Shown: in pieces, positions 28,536 through 34,427 of the stretch
Numbering within the stretch: the stretch's first letter is position 1
Layout: the number at the start of each line of letters is the position of its first letter
DNA from: a virus
Lineage: Duplodnaviria; Heunggongvirae; Uroviricota; Caudoviricetes
IMG/VR virus record: IMGVR_UViG_2574180160_000007
Strand: one strand, 5' to 3'
Length of the DNA: 34,744 nucleotides
Program-made: the position numbers and the translations under genes
Notes under the pieces: generated by a model
The model's database searches: none
What the model was told of the DNA's origin: nothing
What the model saw: only the letters and a program-made list of their open reading frames with translations

Positions 28536-29026
28536 GTATCCTCCGGATAATAAAAAGCCAGCTTAGTGCACTGAGTGCGGATATATTCCTGCGCCCCTTC
28601 CAGCTGCTTCTGCATTGTCATCAACCGTTCTCTGAGGATGAAATAATCCCGTTCAGCGGTGTCTGCCAGTCGGGGGCCGGTTGCATTATCCACGCTGGAG
28701 GTGCCGGTGGCTTCACGCACGGTACCGGGGCAGGTGGCGTTGACCCGCAGGCGCTTACGACCAGCGGCAACATCAGCGCGCAGAGTTTCATTTTCAGCTC
28801 TCGCATCGGCTAATTCCTTCGTGTATCTGGCATCAAGCGCAGCGACATCTCGCTGGCGCTGCTGCATGTCAGTAATAGTGGCATTCGCCAGTTTCAGCTC
28901 ACTGACTTTTTTATCGCGCTGCGCTTTGTAGGTGATGGCGTTATCGCGGTAATGATTCAGCCCCAGACTAAGCACACCACAGGCTACCAGCAGGACAATA
29001 ATCACCACACACAGAACACGGTTCAT
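28532..29026 (-). CDS. Rz: Rz i-spanin (start at MNRVLCVV)
   Basis: ..[68 protein letters not shown]...[32 protein letters not shown] closely matches lambda Rz. Confidence 0.9.
28621..28806 (-). CDS. Rz1: Rz1 o-spanin lipoprotein, embedded in Rz in the +1 frame
   Basis: [22 protein letters not shown]...[32 protein letters not shown]: lipobox LVVSAC and Pro-rich motif as in lambda Rz1. Confidence 0.85.
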
Positions 29027-29244
29027 ATCACCACCAACGGATTGCCCAGACCAGAACAGCAATGGCCACAATACGAATGGCAAATGCCATTGCCCGAATA
29101 AGTTCAGCACTCATCTTTTTAAAGTTCACGATTTCAGCGCAATGACCAGTTTTGCCAGCCCATACAGCATCGGAGACACAGCAATACCAACAGCCACCCA
29201 CTTAATAGCAAAAGCCAGCGCTCTGCTGATGTCATCAGTCACTG

Positions 29245-29376
29245 TCACCCCAGCAGCCCCGACGAAGACAACATCACCCAGGCGAAGGACAGAAAAAGAG
29301 CAACCAGCATTAGTGAAAATGAAATACCGACAATCACACACAGGACCTTTGCCGGCGTTATGAGTTTGTCTGACAT
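29245..29376 (-). CDS. Candidate 43-aa hydrophobic peptide (MSDKLITPAKVLCVIVGISFSLMLVALFLSFAWVMLSSSGLLG)
   Basis: ATG preceded by AAGGGG Shine-Dalgarno; single predicted transmembrane helix; an adjacent frame encodes a second hydrophobic segment (..AFAIKWVAVGIAVSPMLYGLAKLVIALKS). Confidence 0.3.
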   Translation of the reverse strand: MSDKLITPAKVLCVIVGISFSLMLVALFLSFAWVMLSSSGLLG

Positions 29377-29378
29377 AG

Positions 29379-29474
29379 CTACCCCTTAATTGCCACAATT
29401 AACTGGGATACTACCCATAAAAAAGGGATGCTCCAGACCAGCAAAAATTTCCAGTTTGGTAATTGACTAATCAT
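29379..29474 (-). CDS. Candidate 31-aa hydrophobic peptide (MISQLPNWKFLLVWSIPFLWVVSQLIVAIKG)
   Basis: ATG with GGGAG upstream; stop 2 nt before the next peptide ORF. Confidence 0.25.
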   Translation of the reverse strand: MISQLPNWKFLLVWSIPFLWVVSQLIVAIKG

Positions 29475-29540
29475 GAGTCGCAACTCCCTAATCAGTTTGC
29501 TAAAATCAATCAAGGCAGCCTCCCATAGCTTACTGCCATA

Positions 29541-29580
29541 AAAACAAAACCCCGCTTGCTGCCAACAAACGGGGTTTTTA
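29541..29580. terminator. Bidirectional intrinsic terminator between the endolysin and the small-peptide/Rz region
   Basis: AAACCCCG-15 nt loop-CGGGGTTT with T-runs on both sides. Confidence 0.5.
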
Positions 29581-29668
29581 CTTTTATTCACTTACATTTT
29601 GCCAGTTCGCAGGATTTCGTGTTATCCATCCGCCTTGGCCAACGTCATTTATTAGCAAAATATTCTGC

Positions 29669-30202
29669 TTATCTGTCGATTCCCCAGCACGCCAGCGCGC
29701 TCTCCTGGTCACGACGGGATACCTGACCGTAACAGTTATTTGAGCGAATACGGCAGTCCCTGCCACCGTCCTTAATCCACCAGCGAATCGCCTCACACGC
29801 TCCCCTGCGATCACCTGCATTAATTCGTTTATAAAACGTCGACGGAAAACACTTACCGGGGCCAATGTTGTACGGACAGAATGACGCGATCCCCGCTTTC
29901 TGGGGTTCACTCAATGGCACTCTGATGTTTTTCTCCACCCATGCCAGCGCCTTATCACGCTCAATGGCGTTAACCCGGTCGCATTTTTCCTTCGACAACT
30001 TCATGCCAGGAACGACAGGTTTGCCATCCACCAGGATGGCACCGCGGCAGATGGTCCAGATACCCGCGCCATCACGGTATGCCGTGGTGTGGTTACCTTC
30101 CTTTTCATCCAGAAACTGGTCGAGAATGTCAGGCGCAGGCGCACCAGCGGCAATCAGCGCCAGAACGGCAGCCGACAGGCCGTATTTGATTTTGGTGTTC
30201 AT
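29669..30202 (-). CDS. R: SAR endolysin (T4-lysozyme/GH24 family, signal-anchor-release type)
   Basis: Gly/Ala-rich weakly hydrophobic N-terminus YGLSAAVLALIAAGAPAP followed by catalytic E-x8-D-x5-T (EGNHTTAYRDGAGIWT). Confidence 0.9.
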   Translation of the reverse strand: MNTKIKYGLSAAVLALIAAGAPAPDILDQFLDEKEGNHTTAYRDGAGIWTICRGAILVDGKPVVPGMKLSKEKCDRVNAIERDKALAWVEKNIRVPLSEPQKAGIASFCPYNIGPGKCFPSTFYKRINAGDRRGACEAIRWWIKDGGRDCRIRSNNCYGQVSRRDQESALACWGIDR

Positions 30203-30265
30203 GGATATTTATCAGGATTTATCGGTTTCTGCCCACGGACAGGTTTATCTGTTCCGGTCAGTGAC

Positions 30266-30616
30266 TTAAGGTTGTGATTCCGGAGGAGTCTTCAGAGAAC
30301 CAGTAATTATTCCCGGTAGCTTTCCTTTGTAGGTTATCCATACATTCTGCGCCTCTAAAATTACGGGGCGCTTTTCCGGCGACTGCTCATCCCCTTCACA
30401 TAACCCGGCAGCAACATCCAGGAAGACCTGTCTGATGCTCCTTCTGGCTGCTGCCTCATAAAACTCCAGCGTGGCACCTTCAACACGGTCCAGCGAGATG
30501 TCCAGGTCAAAAATTTCACCGTCAAAGCGTTTTTTGTCCCGTAACGCTAAAGTTACCGTAACTTTATTCTCAAAATTGCGGATCCCTTTCACAATCAGTT
30601 CATAGTTTTGAGTCAT
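30266..30616 (-). CDS. DUF1327-like (YdfR-like) protein between holin and endolysin
   Basis: 116 aa MTQNYELIVKGIRNFENKVTVTLALRDKKRFDGEIFDLD...; same position as ydfR in E. coli Qin-type lysis cassettes, from memory. Confidence 0.55.
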   Translation of the reverse strand: MTQNYELIVKGIRNFENKVTVTLALRDKKRFDGEIFDLDISLDRVEGATLEFYEAAARRSIRQVFLDVAAGLCEGDEQSPEKRPVILEAQNVWITYKGKLPGIITGSLKTPPESQP

Positions 30617-30620
30617 TGAA

Positions 30621-30836
30621 TTACTCTCCCCGTGCAGCCTTACGACGGTCCTCTCTGATTTTGAAATACAGGTTAGTCAGATATGTCAGCAGCCCAAACA
30701 GCAGACTCCCCAGCACGCCTATTGCCGCCCACTGAGACGGGGAAACCCTGTCCAGCAACTGCAGGAACCAGTAGCCCGTTCCCACCGCTGACGTGGTGTA
30801 TGACACACCTGTTGTGATTTTTTCCATCTGGTACAT
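30621..30836 (-). CDS. S: Class II pinholin, S21-like, dual start (71-aa form from MYQMEK; 68-aa form from the internal Met at 30827)
   Basis: [68 protein letters not shown] matches phage 21 S21 (..[36 protein letters not shown]). Confidence 0.85.
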
Positions 30837-30869
30837 ACCCCGTCTCCCGTTATCCGGAAGCTGACAACA

Positions 30870-30902
30870 ATAAAAAAAGCCACCAGTTAAGTACTGATGG
30901 CT
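30870..30902 (-). terminator. Intrinsic terminator between nanS-p and the holin gene
   Basis: Minus strand AGCCAUCAG-UACUUAA-CUGGUGGCU followed by UUUUUUU, about 35 nt before the holin start. Confidence 0.55.
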
Positions 30903-30986
30903 CTGATAACTCATGCAGGCATCTCAGACGACCCACTGACACTACCGGTGAGTTTAACGATACCTTCCATTTGACTGGCTCACTTT

Positions 30987-32858
30987 TTATGATGATGCCG
31001 GTGCATTTATCTCCAGCACCAGACTTTCTATCTCAACGCCATACGCTGCATTTTTGGTAATATCCGTCAGCGTCAGCGCATTCAGCCCCAGTGTCAGACT
31101 GTCTTTTATGACCTGGAATGCCGGGCCAGCCACTCCATTCAGTTTCGGAGTAACCGTGGCACTGCCGGCGGTGAACACCAGCTCCAGCGTCTGCCAGTCG
31201 TTACTGTAATTCCCGAACTCGCCCAACTTTGTGTTTCCGGCTTTCTTGTGATGCATCAGATTCAGTTTGCCGTCTGTGGTCTGGGTGAAGAACGACATCA
31301 GGAACGGGTTACCAGTCCCGGTCATCGCCACGACGTCAGGTAACGCTACATCGGTATACAGATAAATTCCCAGACCGAACTGGTTGTTGGTCAGTGCGCC
31401 TGACAGTCGAAACTTACAGCTCAGTCTGCCACCCCGTGTCAGCAGGGAGACCGCGTCATCCACCGGATGCATCAGGGACCAGGTTTTATTGCTCTGCTTG
31501 GTAACCTTAAACACACCATCTTCCAGCGCAACACTGCCGCCGGTGATGGTCCAGCCCTGCGCAGCAGCCTCTCCGGCTGTCGGCAGCAGGGAGACTGTAC
31601 GAACGGATGTGTCACCATCAGACGGCCCCGATGGCGTGTCGCCGCCGGGCGAGGGTTTAATCTCCGGTGCGGTACCGCTGATGAAGGCGCTGGTTCGACC
31701 AACTGCGTTCAGAATAGCGGTTGCCAGGCGATCCGAAATAATGCCCCTGCGCGCCCATGAACTGAAATGTGTCGGACGATTTGACGATACCCAATTACCA
31801 TTACTACGGGATTGCGCGCCGTAATAACCTGCATCAGCAATATCCGGGTCTTCTGCCGGTAAGTTGGTGGGCGTGTTGTTGCCGTTACCGTCGGTCATGA
31901 ACGGCACAAAGAAAACGTTGTCGCTCTCCCTGTTTTTGTACGCGCCGTAGACGGAGTCATACTGTGTGCCGTATGTGTTTTTCCAGTAATACGTCGTGTC
32001 GCCACAAATCCACGGTACAACTGCAGCACTGCCGCCATGGCACTGCGCGTTAAATCCGGAAAGGTCAGTACGGAACTGCTTCAGCATGGCCGTGAACAGG
32101 TCCGGTTGCTGTGCGTAGGTGGCAGCGCTCATGTCAAATTCGCCCTGCATCCAGCACACCGCCAGCAACACATTTTTCGGGTTCTTCTGTAATGCCGCTT
32201 TGGTGCGTGCGATCAGGTCCTGATATAACGGTTTACCCACACCCCAGCGTGCCGAATCCTGGCTGGCCCCCGTGTCCGCACTGAATGTCCCCTCCGCGCC
32301 CTGGGTGAATGCCGAACCACCACGACAGCATGGTACCAGCAGGATCCCCGCGTTATTCGGGATATACGGAAGCAGTTTTTTGGCAATATGTAAGCCCTGG
32401 CCGACACAGCCGTACTGCCCTTTGCTCAGGTCTGCCTTCGGATGATTCAGTGCGCTCATATCCTGAACATCATGCAGGCAGTGGTCTGCCGGAATGATGT
32501 CGTTAAATGCGCATGCTTTACCACCGGGAGTCACTGTGTTGCGACGGGCCAGTTGCTTAATGCGTGGGTGGGGCGCATCGTAAGAATCCGGAAGCGGAAG
32601 CCCTTCACCGTAAGCCATGGCATTGGATTGCCCGGCCAGTACGATGACGTAGTACCACTCCGGCTCAGTTGCACCACTGACGACCACATCACCTTCTGCT
32701 GCAATCGCCTGCATCAGGGTATAAGGGGTTATGGCCACCGGACTACCAAACGGCTGCCAGCCCTCTTTCAGTTTATGTGTCAGCTTTTCCGCAAGATCTG
32801 ACGGCGACGCCGCCCTGACAACATCATAGTGTTTAAATGCCATGGTTCTTTCCACCAT
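30987..32858 (-). CDS. nanS-p: Prophage-type sialate O-acetylesterase (NanS-p-like: DUF1737 N-terminus, SASA/SGNH esterase core, C-terminal carbohydrate-binding-like domain)
   Basis: 623 aa; N-terminus MAFKHYDVVRAASPSDLAEKLTHKLKEGWQPFGSPV; esterase block VIVLAGQSNAMAYGEG; located immediately upstream of the lysis cassette as in Stx phages. Confidence 0.8.
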   Translation of the reverse strand: MVERTMAFKHYDVVRAASPSDLAEKLTHKLKEGWQPFGSPVAITPYTLMQAIAAEGDVVVSGATEPEWYYVIVLAGQSNAMAYGEGLPLPDSYDAPHPRIKQLARRNTVTPGGKACAFNDIIPADHCLHDVQDMSALNHPKADLSKGQYGCVGQGLHIAKKLLPYIPNNAGILLVPCCRGGSAFTQGAEGTFSADTGASQDSARWGVGKPLYQDLIARTKAALQKNPKNVLLAVCWMQGEFDMSAATYAQQPDLFTAMLKQFRTDLSGFNAQCHGGSAAVVPWICGDTTYYWKNTYGTQYDSVYGAYKNRESDNVFFVPFMTDGNGNNTPTNLPAEDPDIADAGYYGAQSRSNGNWVSSNRPTHFSSWARRGIISDRLATAILNAVGRTSAFISGTAPEIKPSPGGDTPSGPSDGDTSVRTVSLLPTAGEAAAQGWTITGGSVALEDGVFKVTKQSNKTWSLMHPVDDAVSLLTRGGRLSCKFRLSGALTNNQFGLGIYLYTDVALPDVVAMTGTGNPFLMSFFTQTTDGKLNLMHHKKAGNTKLGEFGNYSNDWQTLELVFTAGSATVTPKLNGVAGPAFQVIKDSLTLGLNALTLTDITKNAAYGVEIESLVLEINAPASS

Positions 32859-33103
32859 CTGAAAAATGATTCTTTAAAATACCTGACATGTAATACAGAA
32901 AAAACACAAAACCATACCTTAATTAAAAACCTCATCATCAAGCAGATATGCATGGATAAACTACAAGACGAGATATAAACCACCCTGCATTTAAATAAAC
33001 AATAAACAACATCAGAAAAATAATTCTGCTCTATGGTTTACAATCAAAAATATCATTTATACTTTTCAGAACATCACCAGCAAGGCATAAACAAGGAAAC
33101 TAA

Positions 33104-33439
33104 ATGAAGTGGATTGTGATTGATACAGTTATCCAGCCATCATGCGGAATATCTTTTTCAGTCATATGGAGTAAAATAAAATTAATAATCTGGTATCAAT
33201 CGGATGCTTTCTTACCTCCTGAAAGTATATTTACACTGACTCACACAGGCATCATGCTCAATAACAAAGTGCTGCCTGTAACCATTTACAACGTAGTACC
33301 ATTCAATAAAACATTCTGGAATTTAATCAAAAACAGCCAGGAATGCCCTACAAATACAGATAACGTATTGAATGAATGCTTTAATAACCGTTGCACTCTG
33401 CAAATATGTCCTTATGGGCTAAAACAACAAAGTCCATAA
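33104..33439 (+). CDS. Hypothetical 111-aa Cys-containing protein, AT-rich, divergent from the late operon (cargo in the stx slot)
   Basis: ATG with AAGGAAA Shine-Dalgarno; upstream TTTACA/TATACT-like promoter elements; strongly AT-rich relative to neighbours; no family recognised. Confidence 0.4.
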
Positions 33440-33475
33440 GGAGTTTACTCACATCTGACAAAATCAATATAAACA

Positions 33476-33498
33476 GCCCCTCCGGAGAGGGGCTGGAG
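33476..33498 (-). terminator. GC-rich hairpin (CAGCCCCTC-CGGA-GAGGGGCTG) with T-run on the minus strand
   Basis: Perfect 9-bp stem, 4-nt loop; on the minus strand followed by UUUAUAUUGAUUUU. Confidence 0.4.
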
Positions 33499-33886
33499 AG
33501 TGGCGCTATGTGCCATTGCATGGTGCCGGGTGCCTCCCGGTGAATTCAGTACCAGCACCTGAATCCGCGATTATCCCATATACCTACTCGCTGATTGCCC
33601 CTCCGCACAGGGGGATTCACCATGCCAGTTTCTTTTAACAAACTCCCCGCAAACCAGACAACAGTCAACCGCCTGAATTGTGAAGTATTTAAAAATTTCT
33701 CCCGCTAACTGATACCCGGCTAACAGTCTGGCGTTTTCTTTTTCAGCAACGGGAAAGCAGCAACCACCACACCCGCCACCAGCACACCGTCAGCCAGCAC
33801 TGACATTATCCGGCTGCTGCAATGCCATTCACAAAAACAGTAAGCAATCACTTTTTACCGTAACCGGTGATAATCCAGATATGTAT

Positions 33887-34213
33887 CTACCCCAGATGAG
33901 TAATCCGAAGTTCATCCATACCACAGGTCCTGGCTATTCTGTTGTACTCCTGAACAAGAGCAAATAATTCTGAATTAGCCACCATGAACTCATCGCAAAC
34001 CCTCTGTATAGCATCACTATTCAGAATAATAACGTCTCTTCCCGAAAGACGATCAGGAGTACAGAACAAAACTGTCAAACGGCTGAAGGCCTTTGCTCGT
34101 TCTGCATTGACTATATCAATACGCTGCCTAAGGATGAAACACCCCGACGCCTCATCAATATTCACTCTACCCACACCATATGAATGATAAATATTTAATG
34201 CTGAAAAAACCAT
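33887..34213 (-). CDS. Hypothetical 108-aa protein downstream of tRNA-Arg (cargo in the stx slot)
   Basis: ORF MVFSALNIYHSYGVGRVNIDEASGCFILRQRIDIVNAERAKAFSRL...; weak RBS; no family recognised. Confidence 0.35.
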   Translation of the reverse strand: MVFSALNIYHSYGVGRVNIDEASGCFILRQRIDIVNAERAKAFSRLTVLFCTPDRLSGRDVIILNSDAIQRVCDEFMVANSELFALVQEYNRIARTCGMDELRITHLG

Positions 34214-34350
34214 TAGACCGTATAACAAACACTCAATCAACACTTAACAGAACTTTTATTTTTGACAAACATATAATATTTTCAACAATATCCTGAGCCA
34301 GGTATATTTCAGTATAAGGCTCTGCCGAAAGGAATCTGGAAGAATGAATA

Positions 34351-34427
34351 TGGCGCGCTGTACTGGATTCGAACCAGTGACCGATTGCTTAGAAGGCAAT
34401 TGCTCTGTCCGGCTGAGCTAACAACGC
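34351..34427 (-). tRNA. tRNA-Arg (anticodon UCU), phage-borne (argN/argO-like)
   Basis: Minus strand GCGTTGT-TA-GCTC-AGCCGGACA-GAGC-A-ATTGC-CTTCTAA-GCAAT-CGGTC-ACTGG-TTCGAAT-CCAGT-ACAGCGC-G-CCA folds as a canonical 77-nt cloverleaf with TCT anticodon. Confidence 0.85.

Follow-up and report, generated by a model that had tools for sequence, protein, structure and literature searches.

Small membrane-peptide genes behind a predicted terminator hairpin in the endolysin-spanin interval of a lambdoid prophage

Lysis by Escherichia coli phages is described in textbooks as the combined work of a holin, an endolysin and a spanin, and accessory membrane proteins have been described around this core. 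In phage P2, the non-essential lysis-timing gene lysA is located between the endolysin gene K and the spanin genes lysB/lysC; it is a single gene, and its product of about 140 amino acids (aa) contains several transmembrane domains (TMDs). The corresponding interval is analyzed here in the IMG/VR virus record IMGVR_UViG_2574180160_000007, a stretch of 34,744 nucleotides (nt) that is referred to as the window. In this lambdoid E. coli prophage the endolysin gene R and the i-spanin gene Rz are separated by an insert composed of a predicted terminator hairpin and four small genes, orf1 to orf4, whose predicted products are single-helix membrane peptides. By position, P2 LysA is the closest analogue of these peptides, as both would be membrane proteins that occupy the endolysin-spanin slot and are accessory to the holin-endolysin-spanin core. 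The insert differs from it in its unrelated sequence, in comprising between one and four single-helix peptides of 28-60 aa, in the upstream terminator and in the combinatorial shuffling of its genes.

In their logic, the peptides come closest to the holin/antiholin accessories and to small membrane morons (for example HK97 gp15), and they are related in sequence to none of these. The likeness to antiholins and other lysis-timing accessories (S107, S21-71, P1 LydB, P2 LysA, T4 RI) consists of the late strand and the endolysin-spanin slot and is a positional analogy only. Like the lambdoid holin/antiholin pairs (S105/S107; S21-68/S21-71, PF04971), the peptides would be small inner-membrane proteins made late. 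Unlike them, they have one TMD instead of two or three and no long charged C-terminal tail, and the window already holds a bona fide S21 pinholin (30621-30836). The resemblance to lambdoid morons (bor and lom of lambda, gp15 of HK97) is found in the insertion of extra genes between conserved late genes, in their absence from close relatives and in a lower GC content; HK97 gp15, a superinfection-exclusion protein, is also a small inner-membrane protein. However, classical morons have their own sigma-70 promoter upstream and a terminator downstream and are expressed in the lysogen, whereas the insert has its hairpin upstream, yielded no promoter and ends with an open reading frame (ORF) that abuts Rz. 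Finally, type I toxins (Hok/Gef, Ldr, Ibs, TisB, ShoB; 20-50 aa) are likewise hydrophobic single helices that would be expected to harm the membrane if expressed without control, but the insert has no antisense RNA gene, no promoter of its own and no match to a toxin family, and it belongs to a polycistronic late operon.

The explanation favored here, to which we assign a probability of roughly 40%, is that the insert is a mobile accessory cassette of the late operon whose peptides would have an auxiliary role, modulating the membrane steps of lysis. Such a cassette would be made of the hairpin terminator, a short leader that includes a ribosome-binding site, and four genes, each evolving independently, whose peptide products would cross the inner membrane once. 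The peptide families are already catalogued (PHROGs, RefSeq) but uncharacterized; the architecture departs from that of the known systems in the upstream hairpin, the number of peptides (one to four) and their combinatorial exchange. No functional study of these peptides was found in the literature, including PMC8136144, and the searches otherwise led only to a ribosome profiling (Ribo-seq) catalogue of strain Sakai (PMC5597208).

Peptide genes and their families

The lysis genes of the window and the insert are all located on the minus strand, in the order pinholin, DUF1327/YdfR, R, interval and Rz with Rz1. The R stop codon lies at 29669 and the Rz ATG at 29026, 642 nt apart, in agreement with the about 640 bp between endolysin and Rz/Rz1 given by an initial annotation made from the sequence alone, which had also considered the region an insertion. 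In the canonical layout R and Rz overlap or abut each other. The rrrQ and rzpQ genes of the K-12 prophage Qin overlap, and by far the most of 40 Rz loci from Enterobacteriaceae and lambda have R-Rz gaps of -1 to -22 nt; no member of the orf2 or orf3/orf4 families accompanies an overlapping endolysin there. A K-12 counterpart of the insert was sought and discarded, since R overlaps Rz in Qin.

The insert carries four tightly packed small ORFs with predicted start codons, separated by 2, 2 and 11 nt from one another and by 1 nt from the Rz ATG, and in each peptide a single hydrophobic stretch, at least about 19 residues long, has very short flanks. The initial annotation had reported two consecutive hydrophobic ORFs of 31 and 43 aa, each preceded by a Shine-Dalgarno (SD) sequence, as well as a hydrophobic segment in an adjacent frame. 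The 43-aa ORF stands as described, the 31-aa one proved too short, the additional segment exists as a separate gene (orf3) and a fourth gene (orf4) had been missed. The first gene, orf1 (29379-29513, minus strand), encodes the 44-aa peptide MIDFSKLIRELRLMISQLPNWKFLLVWSIPFLWVVSQLIVAIKG from a TTG at 29513 situated 5 nt after a GGGAGG SD sequence, and it matches phrog_6632 (E 1.3e-12), whose profile of 45 positions fits this length. The 31-aa ORF (29379-29474, ATG at 29474) is most likely the 3' part of this longer gene, because proteins of 44-45 aa homologous to it in Citrobacter, Enterobacter, Klebsiella, Providencia and Salmonella conserve the head IDFSKLIRELR.M in their amino-acid sequence; homologs of the same length are also present in Escherichia, and Yersinia is known from the source name alone. 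A 70-aa version starting at a GTG (29379-29591) was rejected, as it would read through the terminator hairpin.

The second gene, orf2 (29245-29376, minus strand), starts 2 nt after the orf1 stop codon and encodes the 43-aa peptide MSDKLITPAKVLCVIVGISFSLMLVALFLSFAWVMLSSSGLLG, a match to phrog_4906 (E 5.3e-21); the large majority of its listed full-length relatives are exactly 43 aa long, even at 62-67% identity. In some frameshifted copies (L010, L012 and related loci) the C-terminal third is replaced (..RLDDVVFVGDAGVRGI), and a few contigs carry read-through or fusion forms of the orf2 region (P0181, P0185, P0091). The third gene, orf3 (29126-29242, minus strand), encodes the 38-aa peptide VTDDISRALAFAIKWVAVGIAVSPMLYGLAKLVIALKS from a GTG at 29242, again 2 nt after the preceding stop codon, and matches phrog_1115/3246/4493 (E 6.4e-25 to 5e-17). 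Its 28-aa paralog orf4 (29028-29114, minus strand), with its stop codon 1 nt before the Rz ATG, matches phrog_4493 (E 3.8e-6).

The protein-level conservation of these frames was estimated as pN/pS in about 330 related loci, by pooled pairwise comparisons of a few to about 20 alleles. In-frame values were 0.12 for the orf1-type peptide (orf1v allele set), 0.47 for orf2, 0.11 for orf3 and 0.30 for orf4; the respective off-frame values were 1.64 and 1.75, 0.69 and 1.26, 0.98 and 4.23, and 1.02 and 3.36. The peptide frames are thus conserved (0.11-0.47 in frame versus 0.7-4.2 off-frame) and the interval is not the non-coding spacer that had been contemplated as an alternative. The four ORFs are real genes maintained by selection, and they belong to three families, namely orf1, orf2 and orf3 together with orf4. 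Ribosome footprints have been reported for one homolog: XECs191 (now ECs_1966) of E. coli O157:H7 Sakai, an orf2 homolog, is among the translated novel ORFs of a RIBOseq study of uninduced cultures, with an RNA RPKM (reads per kilobase per million) of 30.0, a footprint RPKM of 12.6 and a coverage of 0.55 in LB (PMC5597208). This gene lies between the antirepressor gene and Rz of the Sakai prophage Sp10. The footprints are low and possibly affected by multi-copy mapping, and constitute weak independent evidence of translation for the orf2 homolog.

Database comparisons give no function to the peptides. The matched PHROG families are all of 'unknown function', so that membership shows recurrence in phage genomes only; PGAP and the phage depositors annotate the peptides as hypothetical proteins. 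Each exact peptide sequence occurs on about 1000 or more contigs under no names other than 'hypothetical', 'putative membrane' or 'phage protein'. None of the four has a Pfam or NCBIfam family at the curated cut-off, including holin and pinholin families (two matches were at chance level, E 0.16-0.18), and the precomputed Pfam field is '-' for essentially all listed homologs. The charged hydrophilic C-terminal domain of holins is also missing, as the C-terminal flanks have 2-14 residues and a net charge of 0 to +1. With so little sequence after the helix and no lipobox by inspection, the peptides lack the traits of spanins. That orf2 might be a second copy of the membrane anchor of Rz was likewise considered and discarded, for orf2 and Rz show no similarity.

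Alignments identify orf3 and orf4 as paralogs with the consensus MKNGLE.DAP....(S/T)(R/K)A.AFAI(K/R), followed by either ...LYG.AKLI.A.K(S) or ...IRWW. The orf3 of the window is an N-terminally shortened member, whose usual head was lost at the junction with orf2 and whose GTG start normally codes for an internal valine. In the AlphaFold model of the 60-aa form of orf3 (mean pLDDT 76; 85-89 over the long helix), a short basic helix (residues 2-16) precedes one continuous helix of 37 residues (23-59), which is not a hairpin. Long and short N-terminal forms exist in this family, the former with a basic M.KYKRILLRLT extension and the latter with the MKNGLE start. They are reminiscent of the dual-start motif of holins, a lead only, which is inapplicable to the truncated orf3 of the window. 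The similarity between orf3-type peptides and TMD2 of the pinholin, a local match of 20 residues in a single comparison (E 0.01), might likewise be taken as a lead only. An exhaustive profile search for remote orf3/orf4 homologs returned 25 small proteins, none of them informative. In one viral contig (L293:2725-3300) an orf3-type gene is cut after ..AVGVAV and continues as a tail-fibre-assembly-like sequence, an apparent recombination junction.

The existence of separate families bears on the suggestion of the initial annotation that orf2 and orf3 might be the halves of a single frameshifted membrane protein with two helices. The orf3 frame is indeed open for 36 nt upstream of its start, overlapping the 3' end of orf2; PGAP calls a 51-aa version, and a fused form (P0091) exists. 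Nevertheless, this form lies on one short contig, and intact fusions are not common among the related cassettes; the overlap corresponds to nothing more than the C-terminus of orf2 read in the +1 frame. Moreover, orf2 and orf3 are different families, each with its own full-length forms, which occur alone, with other partners and in reverse order (R-orf3-orf2-Rz), and AlphaFold models the orf3-type peptide as one helix. All this makes a divided two-helix protein extremely improbable. The interval as a FRAMESHIFTED protein was rejected since orf2 and orf3 are found apart and in either order.

The packing of the genes against Rz also raises the question of whether the peptide sequences matter at all. 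They could be sequence-independent leader ORFs restoring the delivery of ribosomes to Rz after an insertion broke the R-Rz coupling, or remnants of recombination. An orf4 that precedes Rz ends 1 nt ahead of the Rz start; an orf2 in that place ends 2 nt from the extended Rz alignment, which is read as 11 nt from the downstream ATG; and TGGTGGTGA at the end of orf4 doubles as an SD-like sequence. The headless, GTG-started orf3 of the window and the existence of frameshifted alleles would also suit leaders or remnants. Yet the amino-acid constraint on orf1, orf3 and orf4 is strong (pN/pS 0.11-0.30), and the families persist in contexts with no downstream spanin. In addition, orf1-type and orf4-type peptides share a C-terminal (I/V)RWW motif that is retained where no Rz follows. 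This motif is therefore a protein feature and not only a ribosome-binding site for Rz, and its interpretation as merely the Rz SD sequence was rejected for the same reason. Mere leader ORFs or remnants are thus very unlikely.

The upstream hairpin and its bearing on expression

A terminator scan predicted an intrinsic-terminator hairpin with A/T tracts on both sides at 29536-29578, on both strands. Its stem-loop (29546-29578) has a 15-bp stem with T-runs on both strands, which makes it bidirectional by sequence, as the initial annotation had stated. Folding yields -24.2 kcal/mol (z -5.6) for the minus strand and -15.3 kcal/mol (z -3.5) for the plus strand, and the element has the GC-rich stem-loop, the U-run and the conserved structure expected of a rho-independent terminator. 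When 13 hairpin variants from several genera were aligned, 95.9% of the cells were paired and four pairs were changed on both sides (12 such cells), a level of covariation that was reached by none of 500 shuffles. One and the same hairpin follows R in all the gap types devoid of ant, and the ant-containing types hold a different hairpin at that place. Across 17 contexts, 16 have a stable hairpin, mostly of -18 to -31 kcal/mol, whose end precedes the start of the first peptide by 30-75 nt. An AT-rich spacer of 90 nt (29579-29668, minus strand; GC 0.389 versus 0.549 for R) separates the hairpin from the stop codon of R, and approximately these first 90 nt are kept in nearly all types of R-Rz gap.

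The distance from the hairpin to the orf1 start is only 32 nt. A promoter scan found no minus-strand promoter in 28400-31000, and there is no terminator between orf4 and Rz. On the plus strand, one weak promoter-like site (29370-29399) was found versus 2.5 expected by chance, and it faces the bidirectional hairpin. An E-value search of Rfam with 28400-30400 gave no matches, and thus no known RNA family or antisense RNA. From these features we infer that the hairpin terminates transcription and that read-through would be Q-dependent. Because no minus-strand promoter was found, the hairpin is upstream and just 32 nt separate it from orf1, the peptides would be made only from the Q-antiterminated late transcript, along with the holin, the endolysin and the spanin. 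The upstream terminator would keep them silent in the lysogen; placing a terminator first implies that the product must not be made there and is required only at a late stage. Translation would proceed by coupling or re-initiation and run into Rz, and the peptides would then insert into the inner membrane to act there at the time of lysis. The likeliest targets would be the triggering of the holin or pinholin, the release of the membrane-tethered endolysin or the action of the spanin. Position, strand, upstream terminator and tight packing all favor a late role of this kind.

Silencing by a terminator could also be explained by toxicity. The peptides might form a selfish toxic element, either a type I toxin-like gene, as the initial annotation had proposed among other roles, or a self-spreading hairpin-peptide micro-element kept by mobility or addiction. 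Their small size and hydrophobicity, the upstream terminator, consistent with a product that needs silence, the recurrence of the units at many junctions and in tandem and the plus-strand promoter-like site facing the hairpin all agree with this possibility. However, neither Pfam (toxin families such as Hok_Gef, Ldr, Ibs and TisB) nor Rfam (antitoxins or small RNAs) gave a match, and promoter-like sites are below chance (1 versus 2.5 expected). The genes share the orientation of the late genes and abut them, unlike a self-standing toxin/antisense pair; the units are not accompanied by any transposase or recombinase, and purifying selection covers the whole peptides, including their non-hydrophobic heads. 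A selfish or toxin-like element is accordingly improbable.

Exchange of the units and their possible roles

The R-Rz interval is a mosaic hot-spot among prophages. Besides the R-orf1-orf2-orf3-orf4-Rz order of the window, the arrangements seen include R-orf4(37 aa)-Rz, R-orf1variant(45 aa)-Rz, R-orf1-orf2-Rz, R-orf3(60 aa)-orf4-Rz, R-orf3-orf2-Rz, R-231aa-orf1-orf2-orf3-orf4-Rz and R-orf3-orf2-methylase-Rz, and R-ant-orf2-Rz is found in the Stx2a phage P13374 and in Sakai Sp10. In a sample of IMG/VR cassettes anchored on the endolysin and not on the peptides, at least one peptide gene was present in 75 of the 76 cassettes with R and Rz, in seven combinations: 24 were window-like, 22 had the orf1 variant only, 20 orf3-orf2, four ant-orf2, three orf4 only, one orf3-orf4 and one orf1-orf2. 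Rz abuts R in only one of these 76. The locus samples come mostly from prophages of E. coli isolates, which are phylogenetically non-independent, and scans of close relatives with single peptides yielded near-identical copies only, with little added diversity. At the DNA level, at least 80% of the whole interval is matched in 587 of 5426 complete E. coli genomes, the orf3+orf4 segment in 1697 and the orf1+orf2 segment in 1537. Peptide-matching DNA is therefore present in roughly 30% of complete E. coli genomes, in addition to Stx-converting phages, under the database label 'hypothetical'. The peptides also occur in propagating phages, such as PhiR5_1, the PhiR12 series and many Stx1/Stx2 phages.

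Units of hairpin and peptide are also found in other genera. Salmonella has a hairpin, a conserved leader, an orf3-type peptide and then Rz in four different upstream contexts, which include a pinholin or a holin_3_1 with a lysozyme or a GH19 endolysin, among them holin_3_1 with GH19, and a position downstream of an antirepressor gene. In Enterobacter, an orf1-type unit is located between a GH19 endolysin and an unrelated overlapped spanin pair. This spanin-like pair (L335-L338:2661-3081), directly after the orf1-type peptide, is unannotated and consists of a 92-aa protein with an N-terminal TMD and a 61-63-aa lipoprotein with a LIASC lipobox, neither with a Pfam match. Elsewhere the unit lies behind an M15 peptidase (L341), directly upstream of the gene for an N-terminally anchored lysozyme, whose start it overlaps (L343), or behind a protein with a PG_binding_1 peptidoglycan-binding domain (L348). 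In Citrobacter it lies between tail genes; in the myovirus baseplate operon of Klebsiella and relatives, a single slot holds an orf1-type unit in one phage and an orf3/4-type unit in another; and in L342 it stands between tail-chaperone-like and tape-measure genes. After the major capsid gene of L347 (2415-3403), five small membrane-peptide ORFs form a tandem array with two nearly identical hairpins, each ahead of one unit, which suggests that hairpin plus peptide is a repeating mobile unit. About five of nine independent contexts outside E. coli adjoin a peptidoglycan-related or endolysin gene (four with identified hydrolase domains, one with a peptidoglycan-binding domain only), which by rough estimate exceeds what is expected of random junctions in late operons. 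A specific partnership with spanins, attractive from the Salmonella and Enterobacter contexts, was set aside as it is weakened by the homologs at tail, baseplate and capsid positions.

The breadth of these positions is also what a generic moron-type membrane cargo unrelated to lysis would produce, the R|Rz junction being merely a permissive slot. Blocking the entry of competing-phage DNA, modulating host membrane proteins or stress responses and counter-defence have been considered as roles for such cargo. The same families are found at tail I/J, baseplate, tail-chaperone/tape-measure and post-capsid positions; the R|Rz slot also takes an antirepressor, a 231-aa protein and a DNA methylase; the GC content of the insert is below that of its flanks; and the units look mobile, with one hairpin each and a tandem in L347. 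Against it, an upstream terminator without a promoter is the opposite of the classical promoter-gene-terminator moron, and this architecture makes expression in the lysogen, the setting in which exclusion factors work, less likely. The PADLOC defence models matched none of the peptide forms, and both the adjacency to peptidoglycan-related or endolysin genes in five of about nine contexts outside E. coli and the near-universal association with this R clade speak against it. Cargo unrelated to lysis is the main rival reading, which we regard as somewhat less likely than the modulation of lysis.

The modulation of lysis is preferred because of the terminator-first design, the adjacency to peptidoglycan genes, the near-universal presence in the R-anchored cassettes and the interchangeability of the families, the three of which may represent interchangeable solutions to one task. 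Several observations weigh against this preference. The peptides have no similarity to any holin, antiholin or spanin family, and the sole holin resemblance is the 20-residue match of orf3-type peptides to pinholin TMD2 (E 0.01). Homologous hairpin-peptide units also lie among tail, baseplate and capsid genes, so that the position is not lysis-specific, and recombination between homologous flanks might by itself account for the linkage to R and Rz. That expression is confined to the late phase is deduced from sequence, and the Sakai footprints, obtained from uninduced cultures, fit spontaneous induction but leaky expression too. Finally, about 5% of the orf2 alleles in the sampled loci are frameshifted.

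A bolder version of the lysis-modulation reading, which we consider rather unlikely, is that the units are previously unrecognized mobile 'lysis micro-protein' modules, silenced by a terminator and swapped combinatorially to tune membrane failure. In that case the peptides may be mini-pinholins or antiholins, or regulators of the release of the signal-anchor-release (SAR) endolysin or of spanin firing. If true, such modules in Stx and other lambdoid E. coli prophages would influence lysis timing, burst size and toxin release. The peptides point to an extra layer of tiny membrane proteins, nearly always present and highly variable, in cassettes of the P21/Stx-phage type beyond the holin, endolysin and spanin. 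If the peptides do not tune lysis, they would constitute a family of late phage micro-proteins that is widespread and stands out by its terminator-first architecture.

Other genes of the cassette and its surroundings

The window corresponds to the late region of the prophage, with a nanS-p-type esterase gene upstream of the cassette and terminase, head and tail genes downstream. The first gene of the cassette encodes the 71-aa class II pinholin of S21 type (30621-30836, minus strand; Pfam PF04971 Phage_holin_2_1, E 9e-33). The holin-endolysin interval is occupied by the accessory gene of the DUF1327/YdfR family (30266-30616, minus strand; PF07041, E 6e-43), called 'YdfR family protein' by PGAP in the identical locus L004. 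This uncharacterized cassette accessory is replaced or truncated in some relatives, with a pseudogene in L006 and a different protein of 178 aa in L005. The endolysin R (29669-30202, minus strand) is a phage lysozyme of 177 aa (PF00959, E 1e-23) with a hydrophobic, SAR-like N-terminal segment, whose counterpart is annotated as lysozyme R or rrrQ in related records. Beyond the insert, Rz (28532-29026, minus strand) encodes an i-spanin of 164 aa (PF03245, E 4e-51), and the o-spanin gene Rz1 (28621-28806, minus strand; PF06085, E 2e-21) is embedded in it. An identical Rz of 69% identity together with a lambda-type R was also found in contigs from unrelated taxa (L174-L199 and others, from Pseudomonas, Kitasatospora, Bacillota and metagenome-assembled genomes); these contigs, several of about 48.5 kb, are almost certainly contamination with phage lambda control DNA.

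A 74-aa ORF (28311-28535, minus strand), annotated by PGAP as hypothetical protein WP_000736383, overlaps the Rz stop codon by 4 nt; it is present in a subset of related cassettes only, and neither Pfam nor PADLOC gave a match. At the other end, a second terminator-like hairpin with a 12-bp stem and a T-run (30876-30904, minus strand) lies between the nanS-p-type esterase gene and the holin gene, and the S-YdfR-R block is therefore flanked by two hairpins. A tRNA-Arg(tct) gene (34351-34427, minus strand) is located upstream of the nanS-p/SASA esterase gene (30987-32858), and the region in between (32859-34350), which is the position of stx in Stx phages, contains here short ORFs only and no stx-like ORF. 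On the terminase side, an HNH endonuclease gene (27505-27870, minus strand) adjoins the terminase genes, and a YlcI/YnfO (DUF3950) gene is encoded on the plus strand (27852-28112); transcription from it would cross Rz and the peptide genes in antisense orientation, in the direction of the bidirectional hairpin.

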